Shown here in pieces: positions 199 to 22,434 of a stretch of DNA of 64,000 nt (the first letter of the stretch is position 1; each line of letters starts with the position of its first letter). The notes under the pieces were generated by a model, which was not told where the DNA came from, made no database searches, and worked only from the letters and a program-made list of their open reading frames with translations. The stretch is from NCBI GenBank assembly GCA_963815195.1, contig CAWFGE010000021.1:96001-160000 (forward strand). The letters run 5' to 3'. This stretch comes from an uncultured Planctomycetaceae bacterium (GTDB lineage: Bacteria > Planctomycetota > Planctomycetia > Planctomycetales > Planctomycetaceae). The position numbers and the translations under genes are program-made.

Positions 199-1056
199 AT
201 GACCAACCCAAACGCAAAAACGCTGCAAATCTTCCTGCCCACGGGCGAACCTCGTGGGATCAGAATCGCCGAACTCACGACCCGAATCGTACAGGCCGTG
301 TTGATTCCCCGCAGCGATCTAGCCACGGCGAAAGCCCGCCCTGAACTCGATCATTTGTCCGTGTATTTCCTCTTTGGCGACTCCGAGGAAGCAGCCAAGC
401 CTATTGTCTACGTCGGCCAGACTGAGGATGTACGCAAACGACTTGACTACCACAACAGCACGAAGGATTTCTGGCAGACCGCCGTCCTCGTGATTTCCAA
501 GACACACAGCTTCACCCAGGCCCACATCAGATACTTGGAATACTACTGCGTTAAAAAGGCCAAGGAGATCGGCCGCTACGCCCTCAACAACGATCAGATT
601 CCCTCAAAGCCGTTCGTCCCTGAGCCGATGGAAGCCGATCTTCTCGACGGATTTGAGACGCTCGCAACTCTCCTCGCTACGCTGGGCTATCCCGTCTTCG
701 AGCCGATCATCAAGAACGATGCTGCTGAACAGTTCTATTTGAAGGGCAAAGACGCCGAAGCTGTTGGCGAGTTGGTCGAAGATGGTTTCGTAGTCAGGGC
801 CGGTGCCATTGCCCGGATTGAAGTTGTCCCTTCTGCCCAAGACACAGTTCCCTCAATGCGGAAAAAGCTCGTCGAGAGCGGCGTTCTGGTGCAGGAAGAC
901 GGGCATCTTCGGTTCACCCAGGATTATCTCTTCAATACGCCGAGCGGTGCCGCTGCTGTGGTCCTGGGGCGGACATCGAACGGCTGGGTGGATTGGAAGA
1001 ACAAAGACGGCATGACACTCAACGAGGTTAAGCGGGCCGAAACGGTTGAGGAATGA
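199..1056 (+). CDS. GIY-YIG nuclease family protein with C-terminal DUF4357-like domain
   Basis: 285 aa. SVYFL...VYVGQTEDVRKRLDYH GIY-YIG-like core, a YLE motif, and a C-terminal FTQDYLFNTPSGAAAVVLGRTSNGWVDWK motif typical of DUF4357. Confidence 0.85.
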   Translation: MTNPNAKTLQIFLPTGEPRGIRIAELTTRIVQAVLIPRSDLATAKARPELDHLSVYFLFGDSEEAAKPIVYVGQTEDVRKRLDYHNSTKDFWQTAVLVISKTHSFTQAHIRYLEYYCVKKAKEIGRYALNNDQIPSKPFVPEPMEADLLDGFETLATLLATLGYPVFEPIIKNDAAEQFYLKGKDAEAVGELVEDGFVVRAGAIARIEVVPSAQDTVPSMRKKLVESGVLVQEDGHLRFTQDYLFNTPSGAAAVVLGRTSNGWVDWKNKDGMTLNEVKRAETVEE

Positions 1057-1233: not shown

Positions 1234-1923
1234 TTATGTATAGGCCTTGGATCTTGCTTTGGATTGCGAGGCGGCAAATAGCAGACACAGCGCACCTAGG
1301 GATAGCAGCAACAGGCCGGAGGGTTCGGGGACCGTTTGAGTGATTGTGACCGTGCCCGGCGTGCTGTCGAAAGGCAATGACTCAAATGTGAAGTTGTTAA
1401 ATGAACTGTCAAGAAACACTGTGTTGTCTGAGGAAATCAGGCTGATTGTGAATTGATCGCCCGCCACGGGAGGCAGAGACGTTACCGTAGTGACGTCGAG
1501 ACGTGCGAGCAGTTTGGGGTCGCTGACCGACACGTCGGCACCCGACAAGGTCGCGTCGCCGCCGATGAAGGTGTCATGGGGCACAACAGGAGAGCTAACC
1601 GCTCCCACAGGCGCAGAAAAGAACGCGTCAGCGCTATCGCCGGAGAACACATAACTCGAATCGGTCAGTTGGGGGTCGGGTTGGGGGTCGACGAATTCAA
1701 GCCGTGTGGCACCCAACGTGTCGATGCGGAACTCGAAGTTGTAGGCGCTAAGATTCATGGGGCTGCCGCTGTCGCTTTGGATCATCACATCCACGAACCC
1801 GCTGCCACCTGGCTGGAGATCGAGGTCGCTGACTGAGACAATAAAGCCGGCTTGAGTCGGGACGTTGAAGCCGCAGACCAAAGTCACCATATATAGAAGG
1901 GTAGTGGACCAACGCAGTTGCAT
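1234..1923 (-). CDS. PEP-CTERM sorting-domain protein with cohesin-like beta-sandwich domain
   Basis: Signal peptide ending TQA-GF. C-terminal VPEPSGLLLLSLGALCLL plus a basic tail. The body follows a cohesin-like pattern (VSVSDLDLQPGGSGFVDVMI...AYNFEF...LLARLDV...GDQFTISL...GTVTIT). GGAG RBS lies upstream; the start could be TTG at 1929. Confidence 0.8.
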   Translation of the reverse strand: MQLRWSTTLLYMVTLVCGFNVPTQAGFIVSVSDLDLQPGGSGFVDVMIQSDSGSPMNLSAYNFEFRIDTLGATRLEFVDPQPDPQLTDSSYVFSGDSADAFFSAPVGAVSSPVVPHDTFIGGDATLSGADVSVSDPKLLARLDVTTVTSLPPVAGDQFTISLISSDNTVFLDSSFNNFTFESLPFDSTPGTVTITQTVPEPSGLLLLSLGALCLLFAASQSKARSKAYT

Positions 1924-1981
1924 CTTCAATTCTCCAAGGCGGGTTTGTCAAAAAGCGAATAATTCCGGTAAGGCATCACGT

Positions 1982-4900
1982 TCAATCGTCCAGCAAGAGG
2001 GCACTGTTGATGCTGCGTCCCAAAGCGCGGAACGTATACAGCCGATCGAGAATGTTGATCAGTCCATCGCCGTTGATATCCGCATCCAACGCGGGGCCGC
2101 TTTGTCCGTAGGCGGCGTTGATATTGGTCAGGTCGATGCTGTTGACGGTCCGATCGCCGTTGGTGTCTCCGAACAGGCGATAGAAGTTGAGATTCGTGTC
2201 CGGCGTGAGGTTGCCGTCGAGGTCAAGCGTGAGGCCATAATAACCATCCCCCACGTTGGAGTTGGGGTTCCCGCCGATGCCGGCCGCGCCGAAGTCGATC
2301 TGAATCGTCTGGCCGACGATCTGGATCATGGAGGAAGTCAGCGTCCGGGCCGTGCCGTTTCCACCGTTGAGGTCGAACTGCGTCAACTGGATGCGGTCGT
2401 TGGACGCGTCGGCGTCCGTCAGGCTATCGACAATCTCTTGCAGGCCGGTTGCCGTGTTGAAGGTGATGTCCAGATAGCGGACGTAGGATCGCTGCAAGGC
2501 CCCTTTCTGCACGTCGAAACTCACGACCTCAAGCGTTTGGGGAGCGGCAAACGTGGTGCTCACGAGCACGTCGGCGGGTGCCGAGGGAGCGGCTTCCACA
2601 TTCGTGTTGCCGTCAATACCCACCGTGTAGAAGCGGTAGGAATGCGAGTTTCCGTCCGCAATGGCTTGGTAGGTCAGCATGCCGGAATAATTCGCCACTC
2701 CGCCCGTGTTGACGGTGGCGACGTTCTGTGCCGCGCCCCCGTCAATCGACACGAACACATCGATAAAGGCCAGCTTGCTTCCGCCGGAATCGCTTCCGGA
2801 AAAGTTCACCGAGAAAGTCGCGGTCGCCGCGTCGACGGAGTCCACCTGTGTGAGTGGGAGGTCCAAGTCGGGCACGTAGGTACTGGCTTCGACGGCCGTG
2901 GGCTTGGTCTCGACATTGCCCGCCAAATCGCGAGCGAAACTCTGGAAGGCGTATGTGTGATTACTCTGAGCAGTAAAGAGAGAAACGGGGTTGCCGGCCG
3001 GCAGAGTAGCCCAGAGCGTATAAGCCCCGCCATCAACCGAGACGTAGACGTCGAACGCTGATAGCCCCGAAGGCGTCCCGCCGGTAAGAACCGGGTCGCT
3101 GCCGGTGACGCTCACGTCGAACGTGAGGCTGGTCGCCCGGCGAGGCAAAGCGTTGACTTGGCTGAGGGGGGCGATCGTATCCATCAACCACGAGTCCGAG
3201 GCCGACCCAAACCCGGCGTTGCCCGCCAAATCCGTGATACCCGTCCCGTCGACCGTCAACGTGTACGTCCCATTGGCCCCCGTGAGGATTTCCAAACCGC
3301 CGATGGTGACGAGGTTGGAATCACCAATCGAGGGTGTGAACGTCAGAGGCCCGGTTAAGAACTGATCGACGCCGTTCAGTGCAAGCGTGAGGTCGTCCGC
3401 GTCCAACGTGGCCACGTCGATCGGTTCGGAAAACAAAACCTCGACCGCCGAAACGCCGACATTCCGTGGATCGGGCGATATATCGAGGATGTCCAGCACC
3501 TGGGGCGGCGTGTCGTCGACAGCGACCGAGGCCGAGAACTCCGACGTATTTCCGGCGGCATCCGTGGCGGTGGCGGTGATCCATTCACCGGAACTGGTCG
3601 CGGCGGAGAGATCGATGGTGAAGTCCGAGTGACCGGCGGCATCGGTGACGATGATGGTTGAACCCAGGTACCGCTGGCCTTCCCCATCACCGCTCGGATC
3701 GGGGACGGAATTGGCATAGAATTCGATAAGGAACCCGCTATCGGGGGTGCTATCGAGGGCCCCCGCGGCATGAGTCGTCGCTCCCGGCCTGGCTGCGAGG
3801 ATCACCGGGAAGTTCTGCAGATCATTCGGCCCCGCGTCGGCGTCATCGGAATCGTTCGCCGTCACGCCATCGCTATCCAGGTCGATGCCCAGTCCGCCGT
3901 TGGAGTGGATCGAATTGCCCCGGATGCTGTTGCCGGTGGTGGTGGCCCCTGTGACTGCAACGCCGGAGAGGGTGTTAAAGGCGATTGTGTTGCCTTCCGC
4001 CGCGTCGCCGACAGCATCGCCGTTCGTGCCGATGACATTGTTCGCGGCCCCGGTTCTGATGCGCACGCCGGTCCCGTTCCCCAAGGCCAGCGTGCCGGTC
4101 ACGTCCGTGCCGATGAAGTTGCCGGCCACCAGGTTTTCTTCAGTGCCGCCATTCCCAAGTAGCACTCCTTCCGAAGTGTTTCCCGAGATGATGTTCCGCT
4201 CGGCTTGATCGTTTATTCCATCGCCGTTGGTGCCCACTCGGTTAAACTTGGGACCGCCTCCGCCGGCTCCCCCGACACCAATGGTCACACCGGCTCCGTT
4301 GGCGACCGCAGCCGTCCCGGTAGCGTCGGTGCCGATAAAGTTTCCGGCAATGACGTTGAAATTCGTGCCGGTCCCTTGCAAGTTCACGCTCCAAAGGACA
4401 TGGCCGGAGATCACGTTGCGTTCCTCAGCGTCGGCAATCCCGTTTGCGTCCGTTCCGATTCGATTGAATTGCGCTCCCCCGCCGATGCCAATATTGATCG
4501 TGGTCGAGGGACCATTGCCAAACGCCACACTGCCGGTGACATCGGTTCCAATAAAGTTTCCTGCCACAACGTTGGAGTCGCTTCCGTTGATACCGATGCC
4601 TCCGCCTTCATTTGCGGAGATGATGTTTCGCTCGTTTTCATTGTAGAGATCGTTGCTGCCATTGGTGCCAATGAGGTTTGACTGCGCCCCGCTGCTGATT
4701 CTGACACCTACCCCGCTGTTGCTCAGTGCGAGCGTGCCTGTCACGTCCGTGCCGATGAAGTTGCCCGCCACCACATTCTCATCGGTGCCGGCTCCCGTGA
4801 TCTCCACCCCATGCGAGAGATTCGCGGAAATCAAATTGCGCTCGGCGGCATCAGCCAAGCCGTCGCCGTTCGTCCCAACGCGATTGTCCTTGGCCCCGCC

Positions 4901-7900
4901 GCGAATCCGCACGCCGCGCACATTGCCTATGGCAATGGTTCCTGTGACATCCGTACCAAGAAAGTTCCCGGCGATCACGTTCGACGCAGCGCCATCGATT
5001 TCGACCCCCGCATTCGCATTTCCCGAGATGACGTTTCGCTCGGCAGCATCGGCAACGCCATCACCATTGGTGCCGACGAGGTTATTCGAGGCTCCCCCTG
5101 TAATCTTGACTCCGAAGTTCGCGTTCCCAAGGTCGGCCGTGCCCGTAATATCCGTGCCGATGAAGTTTCCGGCCACGATGTTGTCGTTTGCGGTCGTACC
5201 CAGGATATCGACGCCCGAATAAGCATTTCCCGAAATGACGTTTCGCTCGGCGGCATCCGCCACGCCGTCGCCGTTGGTGCCGATACGGTTAAAAGCCCCA
5301 GCGGAAATGACGACGCCAAACCCATTTCCCAGTGCCGCGCTGCCGGTCACGTCCGTGCCAATGAAGTTCCCCGCGACGATGTTGCGATCCGTGCCGGCGT
5401 TCTCAATGAGCACGCCATCTTCTCCAACGTTGGCAGCGATGATGTTCCTTTCGGCGGCATCCGCCACGCCGTCGCCGTCTGTTCCAATCACATTGAATTG
5501 CGCTCCGCCCGAGACCGCCACGCCGCTAAAGCTGTTTCCCAGGGCGAGAGTCCCGCTGGCGTCCGTGCCGATGTAGTTGCCGGCCACGACGTTGGCATCG
5601 GTGCCCGACACCCTGAATCCGCAGTCCGCTTCCCGCGTTCCCGGAAATCACATTTCGCTCTGCGGCATCGCCAAGGCCGTCGCCGTTCGTGCCGACAAGA
5701 TTCGACGAGGCACCGCCGATGATATGCACGCCCAGCGACGCATTGCCCAAAGCCGCCGTGCCCGTCACGTCGGTGCCGATGAAGTTCCCGGCGATGACGT
5801 TTTGAGTTGCTCCGGCACTGGAGATTCTCACCCCTTCATTCAGGTTTCCGGAAATGACATTCCGCTCGGCGTTGTCGGCGACGCCGTCGCCGTTGGTGCC
5901 GATAAGATTGTTTGGCGCATTATTAATCAATACTCCGTAACTGGAGTTCCCTAAGGCGACCATCCCGGTCACATCGGTGCCGATATAGTTCCCGGCGACG
6001 ACGTTGTTGGATCGTAGCTTGTTCTGCCAATGTCAACGCCGTGGCGATCGTTTCCTGAAATAATGTTTCGCTCGTCGGTGTCAGCGATGCCGTCGCCGTT
6101 GGTGCCGATGCGATTGCTTTGCGCTCCCTGCCAGATAAGGATGCCGTCGAATTGGTTTCCAAGATCGGCTAAGCCGGTCACGTCGGTGCCGATGAAGTTG
6201 CCGGCCACGACATTCTGGTCGCTGCCGGAACTCACGATCTCCACGCCGTGCAGTTGGTTCCCCGAAATCACGTTGCGCTCGGCGGCGTCCGCCACGCCAT
6301 CGCCGTTGGTCCCGATGAGGTTGGATTGAGCCCCGGTCTGGATGAGCACGCCGTTCGCCCCGTTGCCGAGCGCGGCGGTTCCGGTCACGTCCGTGCCGAT
6401 ATTGTTCCCGGCAACGGTATTGTTGTCGGTGCCGCTCGCAGAAATGACGACACCATAGCTGGCGTTTCCCGAAATGATATTTCGCTCGGCGTCATCATGT
6501 GCACCGTCACCGTTGGTGCCAATGAGGTTCCTCGCAGCCCCGGCGTTGATCGACACTCCCGGTCCACCGTTGCCCAGGGCATTCCTGCCGGTAACGTCAG
6601 TTCCTGCGTAGTTGCCAGCGACAATGTTCTGTTCGGTTCCCGCACCGTATAGAGACACTCCGTCCAAAGCATTTCCGGAAATCACGTTTCGCTCGGCGGC
6701 GTCGGCCACACCGTCGCTATCCGTGCCGATCAGGTTATTCTTCGCCCCAAAGCGGACCTCGACGCCATGCACGCCGTTCGCGACGGCGATCGTCCCCAAG
6801 GCGTCAGTCCCGACAAAGTTGCCGGCGACGATATTTCCGGTCGGTGCCGGCATCAGTGATCACGATGCCTCGCGCCACATTACCGGAGACGATGTTTCGC
6901 TCCGCGGCATCGGCCAGACCGTCTCCGTTCGTGCCGATGCGATTGCCTTGTGCACCAGCCTCGATAATAACCCCCGGCGCGACAAACTGTCCCGGCGTCC
7001 CATTGCCAAGAGCATTTCCCCCAGTGACATCGACGCCGATGTAGTTCCCGGCGATGACGTTGCTGTCCGTCCCTGCGCCATTGATGTCGATCCCTGCCAC
7101 CGCGTTTCCGGAGATGACGTTGCGCTCGGCGACATCACCGACACCGTCGCCATTGGTGCCGATGAAATTGTTCGTGGCCCCATTCGTTATCAATACTCCA
7201 TTCTTGCTATTCCCCAATGGCGCCCGTCCCGGTCGCATCAGTGCCGATGAAATTGCCCGCGACGACATTGTTGGTGGTGCCCGCGCTGAGGATGTCCACG
7301 CCGTGGCGATTGTTTCCTGAGATAATGTTGCGTTCCTCGGCATCACCAACCCCGTCGCCGTTGGTGCCGACGCGATTGCCTTGCGCCCCTTGCCAGACGA
7401 CCACGCCGTCGTATCGATTTCCAAGATCAGCCATGCCGGTGACGTCGGTGCCGATGTAATTGCCGGCCACCACATTATTGATCGTGCCTGCTCTGAGGAT
7501 GTCCACGCCGTGCCGATTGTTTCCTGAGATAATGTTGCGTTCCTCGGTGTCAGCGACTCCGTCGCCGTTGGTGCCGATAAGATTGCCTTGCATCCTTGCC
7601 AGACGACCACTCCATCGTAGGTGTTTCCAAGATCGGCCGTGCCGGTGATGTCAGTGCCGATGAAGTTTCCGGCCACCACATTCGCGTCACTACCCGCGTT
7701 GACAATCTCGACGCCATGCAAGCCATTCCCGGAAATGACATTCCGTTCGACAGTATCCGCCACACCGTCGCCGTTGGTGCCGATGACATTGTTCGCGGAC
7801 CCACCGGTAATTAAGACTCCGTCACCCATGTTCCCCAGTGCGACGGTGCCGGTGACGTCGGTCCCGATGAAGTTGCCCGCGATTGTGAATTGCCCCGCGG

Positions 7901-10762
7901 AGCCAACGATCTGTATGCCATCACGTCCGTTGCCGGAAATCAGATTTCCTTCGCTGACATCATTGATTCCGTCGCCATCGGTTCCAATAACGTTTAATAC
8001 GCCCCACTGTCGGAAAGCACTCCGTCATAGACATTACCAAGGGCGGCGGTACCGGTGAGGTCGGTGCCGATGAAGTTTCCTTGCACAAGCGTTCCCGTGG
8101 CACTCGATCCAATACCGACACCGTAGGCGTTGCCCGAACTGACATTCCGGTCCGCAGCCGAGGAACCGCCGATGATGTTCCCAAGCCCATTGGTGATCGA
8201 AATCCCCGTGTCCGCATTGCCCAGCGCGAATGTACCGGTCACATCGGTTCCGACAAAGTTCCCCGCGATGACATTGTGGTCCGATCCTGTGCTTTGAATT
8301 AGTACGCCACGATATCCGTTCCCCGAAATGATGTTGCGGCTCCGCCTCGTCTCCCACGCCGTCTCCGTTGGTACCAATGAGGTTGGACTGGGCCCCGGTC
8401 TGGATGAGCACGCCGCTCTCCCCGTTGCCGAGCGCGGCGGTTCCGGTCACGTCCGTGCCGATATAGTTGCCGGCGACGATGTTATAGGAGGTGCCCGTGT
8501 CGAGGATGTCCACGCCGTTTTGATCGTTTCCGGAGATGAGATTGCGTTCCTCGGCATCACCAACCCCGTCGCCGTTGCTGCCGACCCGATTATTCTGGGC
8601 ACCCATACCGATGAATACTCCATCCCCGGCATTGCCTACGCGAGTGTCCCGGTGGCGTCGGTGCCGATATAGTTTCCGGCCACGATGTTCCGATCGGTTC
8701 CCGCTCCTCCAATCGCGACTCCGATCGCCAGATTGCCGGAGATGACGTTGTGCTCGACGTCATCATGATTGCCGTCGCCGTTTGTTCCTATGCGATTGTC
8801 TGTCGCACCTGAGCCATTGGAGCCGCCAGCGTCGATCGCAACACCAGGACCGGTATTCCCCAGGGCAAACGTTCCGGTCGCATCCGTGCCAATATAGTTT
8901 CCAGCGACGACATTGTTGCTGGTTCCGAGGTTCTTTATGCCGATACCCCGGCCGAAGTTCCCCGAAATGACGTTGCGTTCCTGGATGTCGTCCACACCGT
9001 CGGCGTTGGTTCCAATCAGGTTAAAACTCGCTCCAGCTTCTACGTTGATTCCTGGGTTCACTCCGCTCCCGTTTCCCTGCCCGATGGTTCCCGTGGCGTC
9101 CAGGCCGACATAGTTGCCAGCAATCCAGTTATTGTTGCCCAGAATCTTGATGCCCACCAGGGGAAACTGGTTAATGGTCAAGCCGAAAACGGCATTGTTG
9201 TCCGACGTGATCACAAGACCATTCCCTCCGTTGCGCAGGCTTCCATCGAGAATGATTTCCGGCCCGAACGGATTCGTGTCGCCGGTGAATGCGGTTTGCG
9301 TCCGTCCGGCAATGGTGGTCCCGCCGTTGGGGTCGTTCAGCGCCGGCAGGTCGGTGAGTGGTTGGATCAAAAAGGCATCGGGAGCCGCGTCCCCGCCAGC
9401 CAGGCCGGAATCGACATCCACGAAATTTGCATCGGTGGTGGGGATGTTAAAGACGATTTCCGAATCGCCCGGGGCGGTGTTGGCATCTGTAATCGCCTGC
9501 CGCAGCGAACCGGCGCCGCTGTCGTTGGTGTTAGTGACCACGAACGAACTGGGCTCGACCGTGACTGCAAGCGGCTCGTAGTTGAGATAGGCTGGCAGCG
9601 TCAGTCCGTCGGATGCCGTGTTGATGAACGTATCGATGACGCCACCCGTCAGACCGTCGTAGCGGAGCACCTCGTTAGAACTCAAGCTGGAGACATAGAA
9701 GTTGCCGTCCGGTCCGAACACCATGTCGATCGGAGCATTCAATCCCCCGCTGCCGGAAGGCACGAACACGTCCAGGAAGTCGCCGGTCGCGCCGTCGTAC
9801 CGCAGGACGGAATCGGTGGCCCGGCTGGCGACGTAGAGATTGCCGTCCGGCCCGAAGAGCAATCCCTCGGGAAAATCCAGCCCGCCGCTGCCGGGAGGAA
9901 CAAAACTACCGAGAGCAGCCCCGGTATCCCCGTCGAACCGTTCCACGCTGTCGGTGACCTCGCTGCTGACGTACAAATTCCCGTCCGGGCCGAAAATGAG
10001 TCCTCGCGGATCGTTCAGCCCGTTGCCGGAGGCAAAGACGTCGATGAAGGCACCCGTCGCGCCGTCGTAGCGTAAAACGTTGTCAGTGATCGCGCTGCTG
10101 ACGTACAGGTTGCGATCGGGGCCGAAGACAACGTCAAGCGAGCCATCGAGACCCCCGAGCCCGGCGGGGACGAACTCATCGATGAAGGCGCCGCTTTGGC
10201 CGTCGTAACGCAGGACGTCGTCGGCCGCATAACTGGCGACGTAGTAATTTCCGTCGGGACCGAATGCAGCGCCCACGGGATGGCGCAGCCCACCGCTCGT
10301 CGAGGGAACGAACACGTCGATCAACGCGCCGGTGTCCCCGTCGTAACGCAGCACGTTGTGCGAAGTGTAACCGGGAATGACCAGGTCGCCATCTGCGAAA
10401 AGCGCATCGAATGTGCCGGTCTCGTCTGTCGCAGCAGCGCGGATGACGTGCGTGCTGCCAGCGCCGTGGAAGGTGTGCTCTACGGAGGACGGGTTGCCGG
10501 GAACGTTTTGCAACGGCGTTCCGTCGCCCCAGTTGATGGTCCACTGGGAGATCGTGCCGGCATTCAGCGTGGAGAGTTCGAGAGTGTATGGAACCCCGTC
10601 CGTGGTAGACTCGGCACCGCTGATGGTCGCCACCGGGGCGCCCGACAGCAGTGTGCGATCCTCGAGCACTTCCGCGGCCGTTTGCGGACGATTCGAGCGG
10701 CGGGCGGCGGGGCGGCGACGGGATGGCGAGGCGAGCGATTTGAGCCAGGGGGCGAGGAGCAT
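1982..10762 (-). CDS. Giant (~2,900 aa) secreted surface protein: planctomycete N-terminal motif, PKD-like, NHL-type propeller, CSLREA-like motif, ~25 beta-helix repeats, Ig-like domains and C-terminal dockerin; interrupted by about 8 frameshifts
   Basis: Start MLLAPWLKSL...EVLEDRTLLS at 10762. WTINWGDG, repeated FGPDGNLYV, VTNTNDSGAGSLRQAI. GN(F/Y)IGTDxTG repeats continue across ORFs 8636-11233, 8034-8606, 7994-8377, 6804-7829, 7207-7593, 5969-6853, 5526-5972 and 1982-5611. Ends with GDTNGDRTVNSIDL...ADINGDGLINILD. Confidence 0.85.
4100..9120 (-). repeat. Intragenic tandem array of ~25 units of ~70 aa (~210 bp)
   Basis: Counted 25 GN(F/Y/N)(I/V/L/A)G(T/V/L)D motifs, most followed by IGTNGDGxxDxxERNxISGN. 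Confidence 0.85.
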
Positions 10763-11062
10763 CGGTGAGCCCTTTTCCGTCGGAATAAATGAAATTGGAA
10801 GTCTGAGTAGAGGGACCGAGGACAAATCGGGCAATCTGAGCCGATCGTGGGTCTTTTCCCTATGCGAAATTCCGGTTCCGAACCAGCCGGGAAAAATTTC
10901 TGAAATTCGCGGATTTGGAAAATTCCTGGTTTTCGCTTGATTTGGCTTCCCGCGCCGGCATAGTAGGAGGATTCCCGGCGGCGGCTGATGGGTTTGTTCG
11001 GCCGCATCCTTTTCCCAGCGTTCTCGTCCGGCAGCTTGCGCGGACCGGGTGGAGAAGCGTTT

Positions 11063-11659
11063 ATGGAGCACACGATTGCCGCCGCGCGTGACGGTTCCCG
11101 TGAAGCGCTGGGCCGACTGCTGGAGGACTGCCGGCAATACCTGCTGTTGATCGCCAGCCAGGAATTGCACGCGGACCTCCGGCCGAAGGTTGCCCCCTCG
11201 GACCTGGTTCAGGAGACGTTTCTCGATGCCCACCGGGATTTCCCCAAATTCGAGGGCCGGAGCGAAGACGATCTGCTAACGTGGCTGCGGCAGATTCTGC
11301 TCAATAACCTCCGCGATGCGACCCGCAAGTATCGGAAGCTCGCGAAGCGAAATGTGCACCGCGAGATCTCGCTTTCGGTGGGTGAGGGTTCGGCAGTCAT
11401 TGTCGTCAATCGACTTCCCGCGCCCAACGAGTCGCCCAGCTGGTTGGCGCGGCTGCGGGAGAAAAACCGCGAATTGCGCGAAGCGCTGGATCGTCTGAGC
11501 GACGACCACCGCTCGGTCATCATCGCCAGAAATCTCGAACTGCGGTCCTTCATTCAGATCGGCCGCGAGATGCAGCGTTCGCCGGACGCCGTGCGGAAGC
11601 TCTGGCTCCGGGCTTTGGAATCCTTGCAGCGGGAACTGAGGGAGTTCGATGAGCATTGA
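11063..11659 (+). CDS. ECF-type sigma-70 factor, planctomycete kinase-associated type
   Basis: AARDGSREALGRLL, PSDLVQETFL, WLRQILLNNL (region 2) and ALDRLSDDHRSVI...RSPDAVRKLWLRAL (region 4). GGAG precedes ATG 11063; an alternative start is 10988. Overlaps the kinase start. Confidence 0.9.
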   Translation: MEHTIAAARDGSREALGRLLEDCRQYLLLIASQELHADLRPKVAPSDLVQETFLDAHRDFPKFEGRSEDDLLTWLRQILLNNLRDATRKYRKLAKRNVHREISLSVGEGSAVIVVNRLPAPNESPSWLARLREKNRELREALDRLSDDHRSVIIARNLELRSFIQIGREMQRSPDAVRKLWLRALESLQRELREFDEH

Positions 11660-14193
11660 CCGGCAAAACGAGGAACTGTGGTTGGCATCGCTGTTGGCGG
11701 GATTTCATGAGGCGCTTCTGAAAGAGGGTGCCGTCTCGGATCCGGCCGAGCTGGAGCGGCTCGATGCGTTTGGCTCCCAGTGGGAAGCAGCCCGTCATTG
11801 CCTGGAGCGGCTCGAATCGCTCCGCCAAGAAGTTGTGGTCGACCCATCGGACGCAGAGGAATCGACAATCGATTACCGCCGCCAACCCCGTCCGGAACAT
11901 GCCGAGGGTTCGATGGCAATCGACGCGGCGTTCGGAAAGATCGGGCGGTTCCGCTTGCTGCGGACCCTGGGCGCGGGCAGTCACGGCATCGTGTATCTGG
12001 TCAAGGACCCCGTGCTCGCGCGCGACGTGGCGCTGAAGGTTCCCCGTCCGGAAACATTGGCGTCGGCTGAACTCCGGAGCCGGTTTCTGCGCGAGGCCCA
12101 AACGGTGGCGGAGCTGGCTCACCCCAACCTGGTGCCCGTATATGAGGTGGGCGAGTTGGGGCCGGCCTGTTACATCGCCTCGCAATATTGCAGCGGTCCC
12201 ACATTGGCGACCTGGCGGAAGGATCAGGAGAGCCCCGTCGCAATCCGCCTGGCCGTCACGCTGGTGAAAACGCTGGCGGAAACGGTCGATTACGTCCATC
12301 GCCGGGGAATCCTGCATCGCGACATCAAACCCGCGAACGTGCTTTTGGCGCCGTTGCCGAACTCGGAATCGAGCGAGCCGTTTCCCTTCGAACCGAAACT
12401 CACCGATTTCGGCCTGGCCAAGTTGATGGACGGTTCTCCCGCGGCCACGCGAACCGGCGCCGTTCTGGGCACTCCGGCCTACATGGCCCCCGAACAAGCC
12501 CAAGGGCGAGGCGATCGCATTGGGCCGGCGACGGACGTTTACGCGCTGGGGGCGATTCTCTACGAACTGTTGACCGGGCGGCTGCCATTCGGCGGAGACA
12601 CCGACCTCGAAACTCTCCGGCAAGTGACGGAGTCGCGATTGGTTTCTCCGCGTTGGCTCCGCCGCGATGTGCCGCGCGACTTGGAGGCTGTCTGTCTGAA
12701 AGCGATGGATTTCGAACCCGACCGCCGCTACCAATCCGCCGGAGCCTTGGCCGAGGATTTGCGGCGGTTTCTGGCCGATGAGCCGGTTGCGGCTCGGCGG
12801 TCCGGCCCGTTGCGGCGGCTCACGAAATGTTTGCGGCGAAAGCCGGTGGTGTCCGCGCTGGCCATTTCACTCGCGCTGGCGCTCGTGATCGGGATTTCGG
12901 TCGTCACCTGGCTGTGGCAGCGCCTCCGAATCCAACTACAACCTGGCAGAGGAGAGTTTTCGCGATTCGCACCTGGCCATTCAAGAGATCCATTCGGTCT
13001 TATATGAGGGGGGCAAATATGATGATCCCCAATTCCAACCGCTGCGCATGGAAGTTCTGGAGACTGGGCTGAAGTATTACCGCCGGCTGCTGCAACATCA
13101 CGGCGACGACGAGGCCGTGCAGGCCGACGCCGCCGACACCCTTTACCAAATGGGCTTCATCTTGCAAACGACGGGTTCCAAAACGAAAGCGCTGGAAACC
13201 TACCGCGAATCCCTCGCCATCTGGGCACGTTTGGTGAAGCGGAATCCCTCGGAACCAAAGCACCAATACTACCTGGCAAAGACGCTGAATCACATGGGGC
13301 TTCTGCAACTGGAAATGGGAAAATCCGAGGAGGCGATCACCTCCTGGCAGCAGTCTCGCGAAGTTTGGAACACTCTCTGCGCCGACAACCCCGACAACGC
13401 CGGCTATCAGCGCGAACTGGGTTACGCCTATCACGCGCTCGCCGGATACGATCGCTCCACGAAACACTGGGAGTCGATGCGGGCGAATTCCGAAGCGGCG
13501 GGAACGATGTTTGAGAAACTTTCCCAGCGGGATTCGAACAATGGCGAACTCGCGCGAATGCTCGCGGCAAGCTATGCCAACATCGCCTATTCCCATGCCC
13601 AACAAGGTGATCCCCAACAGGCGACGGAATATCTCGAATTATCCCGGGACCTTTGCGAGGATCTCGTCCGCCGGAAGCTCGACATGCCCGACTCCGCCAA
13701 AACTCTCGCCCAAACCCTGCTCGCTATGGGACGCGTCGCGGGGTCCATGAAGAATCAGGACGTGGCGCGGCAATCGTACCAACGCGCCAATGAAATTCTG
13801 AGTGAGCTTCACCGACAACATCCCGCCACGACGACTTATCAACGCGACCTCGCCACATCCCATTGGCAAATGGCGCATCTCTTGCGAAACGAAACGAATG
13901 ATCTGGAACGGCGACGGCATCTTCATCAGTCACTGTTGCTGCGGCGGGAACTGGTTAAAAAAAATCCCGAGGACCTCGGCCGCCGGATTGAATTGGGACG
14001 TTCCCTGATCGACATGGCGGCAATCTTTCGAAAAGACGGCGACTCGAACAACAGCCTGAGCCTGATTCACGAAGCCGAGGAGGTGCTTGCGAAATGCCCG
14101 CCGGACCGAAGGCTTTGGACGAATGAGATCGAACGTTTTAAGCGCGGGCTGGAGGAGGAATCCCCGACTGTGTCGGCGCGGGACGGTTCTTGA
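11649..14193 (+). CDS. Hanks-type Ser/Thr protein kinase with TM segment and C-terminal TPR domain (frameshift near 12925)
   Basis: LGAGSHGIVY, VALK, HRDIKPANVLL, DFGLAK, GTPAYMAPEQ and DVYALG motifs; TM segment VVSALAISLALALVIGISVVTWLW. The alternative frame ESNYNLAEESF...LRMEVLE joins it to TPR ORF 13048-14193. Confidence 0.9.
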
Positions 14194-15361: not shown

Positions 15362-15740
15362 TTGCATTTTTTTCAACGCGATAGATTTTCCCGAAATATT
15401 CTCAAGTTTCCATTTTGACTTCTCTCATTCCTGACCTACGTTTGAATTGAACGCGGAGAACGCTTATCGCCGGGACTGAAACCTGGAGCAGGGCTTCTTC
15501 GCGACTCCTCCCGCTGTGGTTTGCCGGCTTTTCCGCAGGGCGTCGGCAGACTGTTCTCCGGGAGTTCAAAATGCGGGCGGTGGGCAGCAACCTGCGGGTG
15601 CTGTCAACGACATTGAGTTCAACTTCGCTGTGAGGTTGAGTTTTTTGGGGAAAGACGCCTCTTGGGGTGACAACCAACAAACGGGCGGCGGGCTTTCTCA
15701 CATCGTTCCTGTGGAACACGTTTTAATGAGAGGACAACCA

Positions 15741-15914
15741 ATGAAAAACTTCGCACAGAGCATCAAGCGTTTCTTGGCTTCCGAAGACGGCCCGACCGCG
15801 GTCGAATACGCCGTGATGCTGGCCTTGATCGTCGTCGTGTGTCTGACCGCCATCCAAGCCGTCGGCACCAACGCGAACACCAAGTTTGAAGCCGTTCGCG
15901 ACGCCTTGACGTAA
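15741..15914 (+). CDS. flp: Flp family type IVb pilin
   Basis: MKNFAQSIKRFLASEDG-PTAVEYAVMLALIVVVCL contains the G/xxxxEY Flp motif. GAGAGGA RBS. Confidence 0.95.
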   Translation: MKNFAQSIKRFLASEDGPTAVEYAVMLALIVVVCLTAIQAVGTNANTKFEAVRDALT

Positions 15915-15973
15915 TCGGGGCGGCCGCCCGCGTCCGGTTGATGCCGTAACGCGGGATGTGCCGAACGAACAAC

Positions 15974-16030
15974 CGGGGCGGGCTGTCCAGACGCGGGATC
16001 ACCGAGTTTGGAACAGCCCGGCCCGTTTTT
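15974..16030 (+). terminator. Putative intrinsic terminator after flp
   Basis: CGGGCTGT (15979-15986) pairs with ACAGCCCG (16013-16020), with an inner CCAGAC/GTTTGG stem and a T-run following. Confidence 0.55.
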
Positions 16031-16065
16031 CATGTGCCAAGGTTTTTTTTCGGCTTTCGTTTCCA

Positions 16066-16129
16066 GGTGGCACAGACCTTCTTGTCTGTGAGAACGCGGC
16101 TCCGGACAGACAGGTACGTCCATGCCACC
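16066..16129. repeat. Degenerate inverted REP-like pair (GGTGGCACAGAC...GTCTGTG type)
   Basis: GGTGGCACAGACCTTCTTGTCTGTG followed by ACAGACAGGTACGTCCATGCCACC. Confidence 0.6.
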
Positions 16130-16416
16130 CATTTTCTGTTTGCAAGCTAGGGTGATTTCATGTTTCCATTCTGGATTGATTATTCGTCCCTGTCGTTCTG
16201 GGAGCTCGCGCCGTGGCTCGTGGGCATGGTGACGTGGTTTTCCTTCGTGCATGGTGGGCGATAAGGCCGGGTCCAGCGCACCGGCACGACCCGCTCGACC
16301 GGCAGTTTCGCGCGGGATCGTCCGGGGGCGCCGAGTTTGATTTGTAATTTTTTCGCGGCCGGCACCGCCGTAACCTAGATTCCAACGTGTGTTCCAGACA
16401 AGTCGATTAAAAATGC

Positions 16417-16467
16417 GTGCCACTGGATTTGCCAGCTGGCCGAGCGCACTGGCGGAGCCGGTGGCAC
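16417..16467. repeat. Inverted REP-like pair (GTGCCACTGG...CCAG type)
   Basis: GTGCCACTGGATTTGCCAG followed by CACTGGCGGAGCCGGTGGCAC. Confidence 0.6.
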
Positions 16468-16533
16468 ACAGTGGGCAAGGGAAAAAACAACGTCTCGGCG
16501 CGGTTCGCGATTTTTTAGAAAGGCTTCGGAAAA

Positions 16534-17085
16534 ATGGATTGGGAAACGCTTCTCCTCACAAACTGGCACGTCAAGTTCGTCTGCCTGGTTCTGATCGTCG
16601 CCGCGTACATCGACGGCAAGGAACTCCGCGTTCCGAATTGGATCACCTATCCGATGGTGTTCAGCGGATTGATTTACAACGTCTGGGCCGCTGATGGCGC
16701 CGGGTTGGGGATGGCCTTGGTGGGCATGTTCGTCGGCCTGTTGTGCCTGCTCCCCTTGTATGCGGTGGGCGGGATGGGCGCGGGCGATGTCAAACTGATG
16801 GCGGGCATCGGGGCCTGGCTGGGCTGGCAGATCACCTTGTATTCTTTCGCGACGACCACGATCGTGGGGGCGGTGATGGCCGTCGTCATGGTCTGGTATA
16901 CGAAAAACTTCACCAAGCACTATGGCAATTTTCTCACCATCGTGAGCGAATGGCTTACGATCCGCAATCCGCGGGAACTCTCAAGGATTGCCGCCGATCG
17001 CAAGCCCACCATGTTCCTTTTGCCCTATGGGATTCCGATCTGTGTCGGTTCCATTGGCTACTTTTTCTTCGCCGGTCTGATGTAA
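16534..17085 (+). CDS. cpaA: Flp prepilin peptidase (A24 family, CpaA/TadV)
   Basis: AAYIDGKELRVPNWIT, GGMGAGDVKL and LPYGIPI motifs; multi-TM; adjacent to flp. Confidence 0.92.
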   Translation: MDWETLLLTNWHVKFVCLVLIVAAYIDGKELRVPNWITYPMVFSGLIYNVWAADGAGLGMALVGMFVGLLCLLPLYAVGGMGAGDVKLMAGIGAWLGWQITLYSFATTTIVGAVMAVVMVWYTKNFTKHYGNFLTIVSEWLTIRNPRELSRIAADRKPTMFLLPYGIPICVGSIGYFFFAGLM

Positions 17086-17260
17086 GCCGGCGGATTGTCG
17101 AATGGAAGCCGGGCCGAACGTTTAATTTGCCGGACGAGAGGGTCAAAAGCCCTCGATCGTCCCTCTCCTTCCGGGGAGAGCCCACCCGAACACTTCACGA
17201 GCATGCCAGGACCGTTCGGTTGTCTTGCCTCTCGAATAGCGATTCCAGGAGATTCCTCCC

Positions 17261-18289
17261 ATGAAGATGAAGTCCATGGTTTTATTTACCGTGGCGATCG
17301 GCCTAGGGCTGTTTGCCATGTACAGCGTGCAGAAGGTCATGTCCCAAAACCGGGGCACGGAAACAGAGTACGGCCAGGTGCTGGTTGCGATTTCGGACAT
17401 CCCGCCGGGCGTTCCGCTCGACGATTCCAATGTGTCCTTCCGCAAATGGCCCAAGGACGCCATTCCCGAAGGCGCCGTCGTCAGCGAGGAGCAATACGTC
17501 GAACGGGCGCTCAAAGGCGCGGCCGTGTCGGGGGAAATGCTCATGGTGGCGAAGCTGGGCGAGAAAGGCGTGTTCGGAGCCTCCAGCGAAATTCCCGACG
17601 GGATGCGGGCGGTGACGGTTTCGGTCGATCCCACAAAAACGCACAGCGGCCAGATCCAGCCGGACGACCGCGTGGACGTGCTGGTGACCTACAAATCCCG
17701 CACGAAGAAGGGCATGATCACCCGCACGAAGGCCGTCTTGGAATTCATTCAAGTTTTCTCGGTCGACAACCGCCGCGCGGGGCTTCCCGGCGAAAATGAA
17801 GAAGTCAGCGCCAAGAACATCTCTCTTCTCGTCACGCCGGATCAGGCGAACCTGTTGATGCTTGCGGAAAGCAAAGGCACGCTGCATTTGGCGCTTCGGC
17901 ACAAAACGGACGACGATCCCGCGAAGCCGGCGATGGTGGACGATTCCTTCTTCGACGATGTCGAGACGCAACTCGGCGAGCGGACCGGCGAGTTCGACGA
18001 GGGCGCGAAGGAGCGGCGGGTCATGGCCGCACCGGATCCCAAAAACATCGCCGAAGCATTAAAGCGGGAACTTGCGGGGCAGGGAACTCCCCCAGCCGAG
18101 CCCTCGGGACCGGAAATTCCAGCGGAGCCTGCGCCGGAAATGTGGAAAATCCAAATCTACACAGGGAAAGAAGTAAGGATCGAGGAAGTCGAATTACCGC
18201 CCGAGAAACCCGAAACAAAGGAAGAGCCAACCAAAGTCTCCCACCTCTGGAAGACGATACAAGAAATGGTATCCGAACAAGTCCACTAA
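17261..18289 (+). CDS. cpaB: Flp pilus assembly protein CpaB/RcpC
   Basis: N-terminal TM, SAF-like VLVAISDIPPG, IPDGMRAVTV, IQPDDRVDVL, LLVTPDQA, LHLALR. AGGAGA RBS. Confidence 0.92.
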   Translation: MKMKSMVLFTVAIGLGLFAMYSVQKVMSQNRGTETEYGQVLVAISDIPPGVPLDDSNVSFRKWPKDAIPEGAVVSEEQYVERALKGAAVSGEMLMVAKLGEKGVFGASSEIPDGMRAVTVSVDPTKTHSGQIQPDDRVDVLVTYKSRTKKGMITRTKAVLEFIQVFSVDNRRAGLPGENEEVSAKNISLLVTPDQANLLMLAESKGTLHLALRHKTDDDPAKPAMVDDSFFDDVETQLGERTGEFDEGAKERRVMAAPDPKNIAEALKRELAGQGTPPAEPSGPEIPAEPAPEMWKIQIYTGKEVRIEEVELPPEKPETKEEPTKVSHLWKTIQEMVSEQVH

Positions 18290-18295
18290 TGCGAA

Positions 18296-18620
18296 CAGGC
18301 GTTACCATCGGACTCAACAGCTCGGTCAAGGGTTTTCCAGCCTCGCAAAGCTTTAGGCTTGAAGCTGGGAACCTTGGGCCGAGTGAGTCCGTTTGGCACC
18401 ACCTGCGGATTTGAGCGGAGCCGGGTGCGCGGGAAGCACAAGGGCTCATCGCTTCCCGCGATCCAAGAAGTGGTTCGGGCTTTGCTTTGGTTTCAGATTG
18501 GGAGACCAAAGCGTTAAGCCAAACTGGGGGGCCGGCCACATGGGTCCGGTCGCGTAAAGATTCACAGTGGTGTTTTGATTCGCGTCCTTTTGCGGGAATT
18601 GCCGCTGGCAGGCGCGAGTC
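18296..18620 (+). other. Highly structured cpaB-cpaC intercistronic region (candidate cis-regulatory RNA)
   Basis: Long hairpin 18309-18391 plus stems 18428-18460, 18484-18512 and 18577-18620. The mismatches are mostly G-U pairs on the plus strand. Confidence 0.5.
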
Positions 18621-18644
18621 CGTACCAGACCCTGAGGTGCATGG

Positions 18645-20430
18645 ATGCAATTAAAAACTTGGGACCGCTTGCAGGCGGTGAGGCGTCTGTTTTCGATTGG
18701 GGCGGTTTGCCTGGGCCTGGCGGGGCTCGGCAGTACGGCGTTTGCGCTCGACGAGCCTCAACCGTCCTTGAATGACCCCGTCGTCGTGGTGAACAGAGAA
18801 AAATCCACGATGCAAATCGTGGAGCGCTTCACGAAAATTGTCAAACTCCCCGGCCGGGTTGTCCGCGTGGATGGATTCGACCCCGCCGTGGTCAACGTGG
18901 CCGCGGCCTCTCCGACCGAGTTTCGGATCATGGCCGTCGCTCCGGGCGTGACCACCATCGTCTTCGCCGATGAGAACGGCGCGATCTACACGGTCGAAAC
19001 CTTCGTGGCGGGCGATGTCCGCCATCTGCAAGCCTACATCGACCGGCTGTTTCCGGGTTCCGCGGTCAAGGCCGTCGCCGTCAAAGACAGCGTCGTCCTG
19101 CGCGGCTGGGTGACCCGCCCGGAAAACATCACCGCCATCGTCGAAATCGCCGAGCAGTTTTATCCCCGCGTGCTCAACCAGATGCAGGTCGGCGGTGCGC
19201 AGCAGGTGATTTTGAAAGTCAAAGTGATGGAAGTCCAACGCTCCAAGATCCGGCAGTTGGGCCTCAACTTCTTGTTCCTCGACAATAACCAGTTTCTGTC
19301 CAACACCGTGGGCCAGTTGACGCAGTTGAGCAACTTGCCGGGCGGATTCGGTTCGAGCGGAGGCAACGTCTTCTCGCAACAGTCGTTGTCGGCCGCCCAA
19401 GTCGCGGCGGGGCTAGTGCATAACAGCTCCCTGTTCCAAGGCTTCATCGAAGCGCTTAAGCAGGAGAACTTGTTGAAGATTCTCGCCGAACCCACGTTGA
19501 ACACATCCAACGGCCGGCCCTCGAACCTTCTGGCGGGCGGCGAATTTCCGGTGGTCGTTCCGCAAGGCTTGGGCCGAAACTCGGTCAAGTACAAACAGTT
19601 CGGCGTGCAATTGGAAGCCGTGCCCACCATCCTCGGAAACGGCCGCGTGCGGCTGGAACTCGCTCCGGAAGTCAGCGAGCGGGACTTCACCAACTCGGTG
19701 ACGATCGGCGGGATCACCGCTCCCGGCTTGACGACCCGCCGGGTCAACACGCAGGTCGAAATGGAATTCGGTCAAACCTACATGCTGGCCGGGCTGTTGT
19801 CGCTCCGGCGGCTCGCCAACACGAACAAGGTTCCGCTGTTCGGCGAAATCCCCGGAATCGGGGCCCTGTTCCGCCGGGTCCGGTACGAAGAAGCGGAAAC
19901 GGAACTCGTGATTATGGTCACTCCGGAACTCGCCGGTCCCATGGAACGCTGCCAGGTTCCGCCCAATCCTCCCGGCACGTTCACTTCGGTGCCCACCGCG
20001 ACAGAGCTGTTTTGCGACGGGATGATCGAAGTGCCGAATTACGGCGGCCGCTGCAACGGCGTGTGCGAGATGGGCGGGCTTCCCAGCAGCCGCTTGCATT
20101 ATGCCACCGTGTGCGAGGGCGGATGCCCGCCCAACTCGCCGATGATGGACTTCCCGGCGGATTCGAACATGATGGGACCGGGCCAAATGCCGCTTCCCGA
20201 AACGGCCCCCATGCCAGGGGCGCCGATTCCCTCGGCTCCGCCCGCGGCTCCCGCCGAAGAACGACTCCCGCTCCTTCCGCAAGTCGCCGCTGCCTGCTCA
20301 GGATGCGGAAGGCTCCTCGGAGATCAAGCCCATCTCCTATAACGGTTGGTATCAGTACAAACCGAAATCCCGGGTCGAAGGGGCCCAGGCGACATCCCCC
20401 GCCGAGCGGCCGGGACTCATCGCGCCCTAA
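18645..20430 (+). CDS. cpaC: Tad secretin CpaC/RcpA with BON-like domain (probable frameshift near 20270-20290)
   Basis: QVILKVKVMEV, LKILAEPTL, LAGGEFPV, FGVQL, PEVSE, TQVEM, KVPLFGEIPGIGALF and ELVIMVTP secretin motifs. The annotated ORF stops at 20342, but another frame reads ...SPAERPGLIAP* to 20430, just before a terminator. Confidence 0.9.
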
Positions 20431-20467
20431 TCATCGGCCCGATCGACAGAACTTCTCTTAAACGACA

Positions 20468-20515
20468 ACCCGAAGCGCCGGCAAAAACGCCGCCGGCGCT
20501 TCGGGTCTTTTTTTT
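20468..20515 (+). terminator. Intrinsic terminator after cpaC
   Basis: Perfect 15-bp stem ACCCGAAGCGCCGGC/GCCGGCGCTTCGGGT followed by C and T8. Confidence 0.9.
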
Positions 20516-20673
20516 GGCTCTTCCGGCGAATCGGGGGGCGGACGCTGATGATCTTTTTGGGTGATGCTCAACCACGGATTTCACCTCCCTGCGGGGAGGT
20601 GAAAGATCGCGGACAAGAGATTCTTTAACACCGTCGCCGTTCCCCCTGATGATCCGGAAGACCCCTTTTTTTT

Positions 20674-20822
20674 GATCCGCCGGAGTGCGCTCGCGTCCGG
20701 TTATTTTGGGAACCGGGGCGAGCGCCCTGCGGCGAATGAATGGATCGAGAAATATCCACCGCAGTGCGCTCGCATTCGGTTATTCCAATAAACCGGGGCG
20801 AGCGCCCTGCGGCGGATAAATG
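20674..20822. repeat. Two tandem BIME-like units of inverted REP pairs
   Basis: AACCGGGGCGAGCGCCCTGCGGCG at about 20711 and 20791, each preceded by an inverted degenerate copy (...GTGCGCTCGC...CGGTT). The same family occurs at 26641-26704. Confidence 0.75.
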
Positions 20823-21189
20823 TGTTATGTATCCCTCAAATGACCTAACCGATAGAGCCCCGACAATCCGCCCCCGGGCAAGGGAAATCCCGGCGGCGAA
20901 AAACAAAATCCCCAGACGGCGGAACATCGGAAACTAAACTTCACGCAGAGATTAGGATTGATGGGGCGACCGGTGGGCCTCCCGGCGGCGTTCCTCATTT
21001 CTGACTTTGTGTTGAGGCCGGAGACATCCAGGCACCGGCTTTTCGCCGGGCCGGGGTTCCTTGTGTCAAGGAGTTTGCTTTGAGCCAAGGCACGCGTCCA
21101 CGTATTTCTGATCTGTCCTAGGCCTCGCCATACCGGCTTTCTCCTCAAAAGCCGCGGGCTTAGTCACACGGAAGCGGGCAAGTGATCCT

Positions 21190-22398: not shown

Positions 22399-22434
22399 CC
22401 ACTCCGCCCATGATCGCTACAAAATCATGGGCTT

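Follow-up and report, generated by a model that had tools for sequence, protein, structure and literature searches.

Dockerins and cohesins are known binding partners, and X-module-dockerin dyads are known from cellulosome anchoring. In the sortase-anchored ScaE of Ruminococcus flavefaciens and in OlpA and OlpC of Clostridium thermocellum a single cohesin joined to an envelope anchor catches a C-terminal dockerin. Within the available text of PMC11557425 anchored cohesins are listed with LPxTG, SLH or transmembrane (TM) anchors. Archaeal cohesin-dockerin pairs have been shown to bind, according to PMC9012536, and for freshwater Nemodlikiaceae surface assembly of a planctosome by cohesin/dockerin modules has been proposed, a proposal left untested there in the text available (PMC6461901). 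We analysed a 64,000-nucleotide stretch of the genome of an uncultured Planctomycetaceae bacterium (the window, G000:C21:96001-160000; G000, the genome, is 8.87 Mb and 94.6 % complete), which carries a gene for a 229-amino acid protein directly downstream of the gene for a giant exported protein ending in a dockerin. We consider it likely that the small protein is a single-cohesin anchor holding the neighbouring giant at the cell surface via a PEP-CTERM tail. We base this on the domain layout, the gene pairing, its recurrence in relatives and an exosortase gene in the same genome, together with predicted folds, and from these we infer binding, location and control. To our knowledge, no mechanism has been established that keeps planctomycete giants attached to the cell when they lack a TM anchor.

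The proposed tether would be a variant of the single-cohesin anchoring scaffoldin that uses an exosortase tail. It differs from ScaE and the OlpA type in having an anchor of the PEP-CTERM/exosortase kind in a diderm, and the available text of PMC11557425 does not mention anchors of this type; compared with the cellulosome, the PEP-CTERM tail replaces an SLH or LPxTG anchor on a Gram-positive wall, and neither window protein matched SLH or LPxTG families in Pfam and NCBIfam scans. Because its anchor is of another type and it is accompanied neither by multi-cohesin scaffoldins (none found in this genome, which has 2 dockerins and 0 Pfam cohesins) nor by cellulase cargoes (no glycoside hydrolase family at E ≤ 1e-5 in 21 cargoes scanned), we do not regard the pair as a cellulosome member. 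With the planctosome it shares the use of non-cellulosomal cohesin/dockerin modules within the Planctomycetota. The planctosome's own anchor, as described in the text available, is a 2,210-amino acid lamin-tail/P-domain protein with an adaptor and peptidases, and the term PEP-CTERM occurs 0 times in the main text of that paper (PMC6461901). The anchor here has 229 amino acids, lacks a Pfam cohesin match and adjoins its cargo gene; lamin-tail, P-domain, adaptor and peptidase domains were absent from both window proteins in a Pfam scan, and among the cargoes of relatives one carries an LTD and one a subtilase plus P-domain. The cohesin/dockerin proteins of Archaeoglobus and anaerobic methanotrophic archaea (ANME) likewise lie outside cellulose degradation; they differ, as far as the consulted sources describe them, in being from monoderms, in having cargo such as ABC substrate-binding proteins and in lacking an exosortase tail. 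We found no description of an exosortase-anchored cohesin/dockerin pair in the literature searched, with subscription papers and supplements outside that search.

A predicted cohesin with a PEP-CTERM tail beside a dockerin giant

A first-pass annotation of the DNA had read the small protein as a signal peptide, a cohesin-like beta-sandwich and a PEP-CTERM tail. This layout was borne out, with a putative signal peptide whose hydrophobic helix spans residues 5-18 in an AlphaFold2 (AF2) model, a predicted fold and a tail that scored 18.5 bits with TIGR02595 (cut-off 16) and 19.9 bits with Pfam PF07589, slightly below its cut-off of 20.7. The tail was the sole match of the protein in Pfam and NCBIfam. 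The cohesin domain was modelled with a mean predicted local distance difference test score (pLDDT) of 89.8. The comparison of the 1234-1923 product with cohesins, proposed in the same annotation, came out in favour of that fold since Foldseek, VIA and a sequence profile all ranked cohesins first. Using the AF2 model, Foldseek gave 6kgf as best match (E 2.9e-9) and all entries among the matches listed were cohesins, and a VIA search of 48,161 chains returned cohesins in each of its best 20 rows (Z 10.0-14.3; following row Z 8.5), led by 4uyp (Z 14.3, root-mean-square deviation (rmsd) 2.8, 142 aligned). Single-cohesin anchors were among the structural matches (2zf9 Z 12.0, 3ul4 Z 12.6, 4dh2 Z 12.3), as was the archaeal 2xdh (Z 13.1). 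Alignments of the model to solved cohesins covered 130-153 residues at rmsd 2.6-4.1, with a sequence identity of 5-21 %. Independently of the AF2 model, a profile of 47 homologues searched against 177,635 PDB sequences ranked the Ruminococcus ScaB cohesin entries 5aoz (E 3.3e-4) and 5m2o (E 4.9e-4) first. An Atlas search of the small protein gave leads below 0.9 only, with one cluster carrying Cohesin on 19 % of its members, and was not counted as evidence.

The small protein has 19 close homologues, and a profile search retrieved 2,331 representatives at E ≤ 1e-3, of which 1,013 reached E ≤ 1e-10; the weaker ones may match by the tail only. Nearly all of the best 150 homologues are 160-280 amino acids long, and 39 of the 47 homologues in the profile have a PEP-CTERM match. 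The same genome encodes an exosortase EpsH (PF09721, 190 bits, at G000:C13:246062). Two further proteins were noted by eye: P0143 resembles a monovalent adaptor, a single chain in which a cohesin-family domain is joined to a passenger-like stretch, to a dockerin-like repeat pair and to a PEP-CTERM tail, and P0050 is apparently two PEP-CTERM genes read as one.

The giant had been described as ending in a two-loop dockerin, and its C-terminus (GDTNGDRTVNSIDL...ADINGDGLINILD) indeed matched Dockerin_1 (PF00404) at 29 bits (cut-off 22.9). An AF2 model of the last 187 residues (pLDDT 96.8) places the two dockerin helices at 136-145 and 165-174, and models the dockerin together with the immunoglobulin-like (Ig-like) module ahead of it as one compact unit (predicted template modelling score, pTM, 0.90). 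Solved dockerins rank at the top of the matches to a profile of the dockerin family (E to 1.8e-15), and 46 of the 47 partner proteins of the cohesin homologues matched Dockerin_1. In most cargoes, irrespective of the rest of the protein, the dockerin follows this Ig-like module, which is about 120 amino acids long and has invariant RS and G-x-Y motifs; another pre-dockerin module type was seen in five loci (L076, L081, L082, L086 and L077, the last by its identical dockerin). Structure searches with the module in pdb and pdb_via_wide listed generic Ig/CopC-like matches only (best Z 6.6) and, among the rows listed, no X module, so the likeness to X-module dyads, an Ig-like module directly ahead of the dockerin, is an analogy only. 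The listed structure rows contained no dockerin entry because the Ig-like part filled them.

At its other end the giant carries an arginine-rich leader ending in EVLEDRTLLS, a candidate for the planctomycete LEPRxLL-type motif; a regular expression found 35 such starts in the genome, and Pfam PF07595 (Planc_extracel) had no match listed at this leader and none over the cut-off in the genome (150 of 192 candidates scored). The repeats of approximately 69 amino acids between leader and stalk had an Atlas feature score of 0.95 to Beta_helix/NosD clusters and are 50 % identical to the repeats of L106, an intact relative of 2,523 amino acids. A TM anchor had been reported absent. This stood for the two long open pieces of the giant, whose best 19-residue hydropathy values of 1.38 and 1.3 are not TM-grade (1.91 in the tail of the small protein), with the scan stopping at either side of the frameshifted middle. 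The spacing of the two genes agreed with the approximately 55 bp and common orientation first given: the measured gap is 58 nucleotides (nt) on the same strand, from the giant stop codon at 1984-1982 to the ATG at 1923, with a GGAG 8 nt ahead of that ATG. In a promoter and terminator scan of 1000-2200 no signal exceeded the shuffles, and the gap of 58 nt showed no terminator.

Recurrence of the gene pair

In this genome Dockerin_1 has two matches (68 of 68 candidates scored) and the small-protein family two members, both of which adjoin a dockerin; seven PEP-CTERM matches exceed the cut-off, and the remaining five have no dockerin beside them. In the second pair (L001:5136-6961, G000:C8:439139-440961) the upstream gene is a C-terminal remnant of 306 amino acids. 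This remnant sits directly after a helicase/nuclease-like gene cluster with transposase-like open reading frames (ORFs) nearby (labels by eye). Among the LEPRxLL-type starts, 34 of 35 are without an intact dockerin tail or cohesin neighbour.

That the pairing recurs in other genomes, as the first-pass annotation expected, was seen across the class. Profile A1 gave 87 matches in 56 of 401 genomes, from which 85 loci were obtained, all fetched; L034, a tail-only match, was dropped, and L032 and L033, duplicates of L003 and L006, were counted once. The search scored 7 candidates per genome and missed members found later, so the counts are lower bounds; they are given without P-values because kin are not independent. 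A co-oriented dockerin ends less than 1 kb upstream in 56 of the 85 cohesin loci and 1.2-1.3 kb upstream, with a long C-terminal tail, in three more, while a further three show the reversed order with the dockerin gene directly downstream. Three loci lie at contig ends, leaving 82 informative, and in 62 of these a dockerin gene adjoins the cohesin gene (42 of 62 when the 20 loci that trained the dockerin profile are excluded). For a held-out set we applied profile A3 to 53 genomes with a dockerin but no A1 match and fetched the best 30 loci. An upstream dockerin within 1.5 kb was present in 16 of 20 divergent full-length homologues versus 0 of 10 tail-only PEP-CTERM genes (≥ 25 bits; one at 17 bits); these genomes were picked for having dockerins, a bias equal for both groups. 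Looking from the dockerin side, 21 of 24 matches in family f1 at E ≤ 1e-12 adjoin a cohesin gene, a count that is partly circular and has one match unlisted.

The cargo varies among these loci and the tail is kept, with cadherin, SdrD-B, lectin, Calx-beta, PKD and subtilase domains found among the 21 long ORFs, out of 34, that were scanned. Genomes of family f4 (G200, G228, G260, G184, G216, G316 and G364) hold from 7 to at least 15 dockerin matches each versus 1-4 cohesin genes, a surplus of dockerins that suggests anchors shared in trans. A subtype with a low-complexity tail of 200-400 amino acids after the dockerin was seen at L030, L031, L042, L058, L027, L048, L063 and L083; its dockerins cluster with one another and its cohesins likewise (four tested), and it is possibly a separate specificity group.

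Locus layout, frame changes and the divergent sigma factor and kinase genes

The features of the locus are collected in Table 1.

Table 1 Features of the cohesin/dockerin locus and its divergent neighbours, in window coordinates
Feature	Position	Strand	Basis or remark
Single-cohesin PEP-CTERM protein gene	1234..1923	-	229 aa
Putative signal peptide	residues about 1-24 of the 229-aa protein	-	sequence by eye and AF2 helix
Predicted cohesin domain, beta-sandwich	1333..1851 (residues 25-197)	-	AF2 model, Foldseek, VIA
PEP-CTERM sorting tail: VPEP, hydrophobic helix, basic end	1237..1332 (residues 198-229)	-	TIGR02595 over cut-off
Giant exported protein gene	1982..10762	-	2,927 codons, 8 frame changes in assembly
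C-terminal dockerin, two Ca-loop/helix repeats	1985..2185	-	Pfam PF00404, AF2
Conserved Ig-like module directly ahead of dockerin, invariant RS and G-x-Y motifs	2186..2545	-	alignment A4, model
Ig-like stalk with Big_6-like and Big_5 matches followed by more repeats	2546..3700	-	Pfam; internal repeat
Array of ~69-aa repeats (GNxIGT / IGTNGDG / RNxISGN), predicted right-handed beta-helix	3800..9200	-	holds all 8 frame changes
Frame-change intervals	8677-8546, 8378-8338, 8080-7988, 7670-7578, 7257-7163, 6899-6823, 6070-5993, 5657-5581	-	repeat motifs shift frame
PKD-like domain, then beta-propeller (ScyD/ScyE-like, NHL-like matches)	9560..10640	-	below curated cut-offs except weak NHL, SSL_N
Arg-rich leader ending EVLEDRTLLS	10643..10762	-	sequence
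ECF sigma factor gene	10988..11659	+	divergent from giant; TIGR02984, TIGR02937 matches
Ser/Thr kinase gene	11649..14193	+	single TM helix plus TPR repeats; interrupted near 12923; 847 aa read through

The first-pass annotation had treated the protein of about 2,900 amino acids as one open frame, which it is not in this assembly: 10762 to 1982 reads as 2,927 codons only across the eight frame changes, all of which lie inside the repeats at 8680-5580. Contigs of run X1 cover three of the eight sites and carry frame-restoring indels at all three (6012 with 6018, 7591 and 7999), and a further frame-restoring indel at the kinase split, 12923; the remaining five sites are uncovered in X1. The cleanest site is 7999, on a 283-nt contig with no other difference, the contigs at 6012/6018 and 7591 having 9 and 7 other differences respectively. 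The repeats have 2.6 frame changes per kb; across 70 kinase domains of this genome the rate is 0.05 per kb (three of the 70 affected), and the 5.7 kb non-repeat part of the giant gene has none; rpoB is intact. Given the difference in rate between repeats and kinase domains, assembly error in the repeats is likely to be the cause, unproven as it is. Run X1 may be the source sample and is therefore no independent support for anything else. It also has two extra bases at 10950, in the spacer just before the ECF start, which could alter the 5′ end of the ECF gene.

The divergent arrangement of an extracytoplasmic function (ECF) sigma factor gene and a Ser/Thr kinase gene, described before, is present upstream of the giant. 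The ECF product scored 171.3 bits with TIGR02984 (cut-off 183.75) and 74.2 bits with TIGR02937 (cut-off 42.9). The two genes share 11 nt and are not separated by an anti-sigma gene, in likeness to the kinase-associated groups ECF43, ECF59-62 and ECF217, a regulatory type described in PMC7826278 as an ECF gene overlapping a Ser/Thr kinase gene without an intervening anti-sigma gene. Of 44 long loci (the window, L001, L032, L033 and another 40 that were fetched), 25 allowed the giant start to be located together with 3.5 kb or more upstream of it. In 12 of the 25 the giant start has a kinase within approximately 5 kb upstream (divergent in 8, co-oriented in 4); an ECF-like gene was seen in 10, and five of six ECF candidates scanned matched ECF families, of different subfamilies. 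As background, 4.8 % of 5-kb windows in G000 contain a kinase, and the surroundings of 20 other cohesin loci, about 340 kb in all, held four kinases. Kinases are thus enriched upstream of the giants, but the enrichment is not tether-specific because the same arrangement flanks dockerin-less giants: in G000 a kinase lies upstream of 6 of the 35 LEPRxLL-type starts, five of them without a dockerin. Dockerin-less LEPRxLL-type genes divergent from a kinase include G000:C16:78882-81551 (ECF detected), C18:18948-24560 and C8:367280-378315.

The earlier proposal that the tether is switched on by the adjacent ECF/kinase pair thus stood in part: the kinase enrichment speaks for it, while the sigma factors are unrelated to each other, dockerin-less giants are flanked too and no motif was found. 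The best bipartite promoter motif shared by ECF genes and giants occurred in 4 of 7 regions and was equalled in 15 of 100 shuffles, and the 8-mer AATTCCTG was rejected as a promoter motif, its position and strand both being variable. That the divergent pair controls this giant, without being part of the tether, is a possibility we hold tentatively, with the balance slightly against it; a giant gene with an ECF-kinase pair may form a wider regulatory cassette.

Among other observations, three short LEPRxLL-type ORFs stand in tandem upstream of a dockerin giant at L104:9540-11433. In the window, a gene for a GIY-YIG/DUF4357 protein at 199-1056 (+) is convergent with the cohesin gene and apparently unrelated, and a Tad/Flp pilus-like cluster at 15700-22400 (+) comprises small pilin, prepilin peptidase, CpaB-, secretin- and CpaE-like ORFs (labels by eye).

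A proposed tether, its rivals and its meaning

In the mechanism we propose, the anchor would cross the inner membrane by its signal peptide, exosortase would remove the tail and the cohesin would become fixed in the envelope. The giant, having no TM anchor, would exit by the route of LEPRxLL-leader proteins, and its Ca2+-loaded dockerin would bind the cohesin with the beta-helix and propeller projecting outward as an adhesin-like rod. With its dockerin captured by an envelope-sorted cohesin, the giant rod would thus be displayed without an anchor of its own. The portable unit would be the Ig-like module and dockerin plus the cohesin-PEP-CTERM gene, the cargo in front being exchangeable, and in genomes with many dockerins and few cohesins one anchor would serve several cargoes.

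A number of observations weigh against this tether. Pfam Cohesin (PF00963) has no match in the 229-amino acid protein, in any of the 47 homologues or genome-wide, and the small-protein family has an insertion of approximately 30 residues relative to solved cohesins. Eighteen of the 82 informative cohesin loci are without a dockerin in the DNA available, and two more have one 2-5 kb away; conversely, 17 of 18 dockerin loci without a known cohesin neighbour still had none in the 3-12 kb fetched, and no full-length cohesin was found in G059, G135 and G388 (64 % complete), which have strong dockerin matches. Of 53 control genomes lacking a dockerin at 1e-12, 10 carry full-length divergent cohesin-family genes, compared with 16 of 53 that have such a dockerin (E ≤ 1e-12). 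Co-occurrence at the genome level is therefore less tight than in a first, partly circular table, where 52 of 56 cohesin-positive genomes had a dockerin. Shared trans-acting anchors and more divergent partners might explain these departures from strict one-to-one pairing. The mirror-tree correlation of the partners is modest (Spearman 0.34; 0 of 2,000 permutations reached that value) and is not evidence of binding because linked genes share history. The giant is frameshifted in this assembly, and some exosortase substrates are periplasmic or released, according to the available text of PMC12188702. The eighteen cohesin-PEP-CTERM genes without a dockerin in the DNA fetched are held in L129-L148.

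The destination of PEP-CTERM proteins is left open in the available text of PMC12188702, where exosortase targets are surface-attached or released, their exit route is unclear and ScyE and ScyF are periplasmic. For this reason we rank as main rival, and an unlikely one, that cohesin and dockerin do bind but act as a periplasmic or export holder or pilot, or are released together into the matrix after exosortase processing. The same fold and pairing evidence applies to this explanation, and one-to-one adjacency also fits a dedicated chaperone. Some solved anchored single cohesins are however surface anchors (2zf9 of ScaE; PMC11557425, in the text available), the cargo domains are typical surface adhesin modules, and export does not need a cohesin, as nearly all LEPRxLL-type starts do without the dockerin tail or cohesin neighbour. 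The tether as we propose it, with the cohesin at the cell surface, is the reading that we retain.

It is improbable, in our judgement, that the two proteins do not bind at all, the dockerin-like tail being a Ca2+-stabilised cap or sorting tag on the Ig-like module and the cohesin-fold protein a stand-alone PEP-CTERM matrix protein in a co-regulated cassette. The dockerin genes and cohesin genes found alone fit such a view, as does the compact modelling of module and dockerin (pTM 0.90). Against it, PEP-CTERM genes show the dockerin link only when they belong to the cohesin-fold family (16/20 vs 0/10 in the held-out set, 2/2 vs 0/5 in this genome), the pairing survives cargo exchange, reversed order and, at C8, the loss of the rest of the giant, and the two folds are known partners. 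We give similarly little weight to the view that the system is real in relatives and that the giant here is a decaying pseudogene in an inactive locus. The frame changes, eight of them in the giant plus a single one in the kinase, the five uncovered sites and the shortened giant of the second pair are in keeping with decay, while the restoration of all three covered sites and of the kinase site in X1, the confinement of the breaks to repeats and the intact rpoB argue against it; this explanation moreover concerns this copy only.

Returning to the tether, a broader proposal, towards which we lean only slightly, is that the Planctomycetia as a class share a two-part display code missed by annotation, in which Pfam-invisible cohesin-PEP-CTERM anchors would capture any exported giant ending in an Ig-like module and dockerin, with specificity groups, shared anchors and local ECF-kinase control. 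Because Gram-positive cellulosomes already follow the logic of a single cohesin joined to an anchor, the surprise is limited. If the code is true, a subset of LEPRxLL giants would for the first time have a concrete anchoring mechanism and cognate pairs would fall into specificity groups; in large genomes a single anchor would serve as many as 15 cargoes or more, and about half of the cargo genes would be under local ECF-kinase control. Most PEP-CTERM proteins have no known function, as stated in the available text of PMC12188702, and under such a code one class of them would be load-bearing receptors. The pair consists of small domains, a 173-residue cohesin and a tail of 70-187 residues. If it binds, cohesin-dockerin anchoring would extend to the exosortase-based envelopes of double-membraned bacteria, an unannotated family would gain a function, and many divergent cohesin-dockerin pairs would become usable for protein display.

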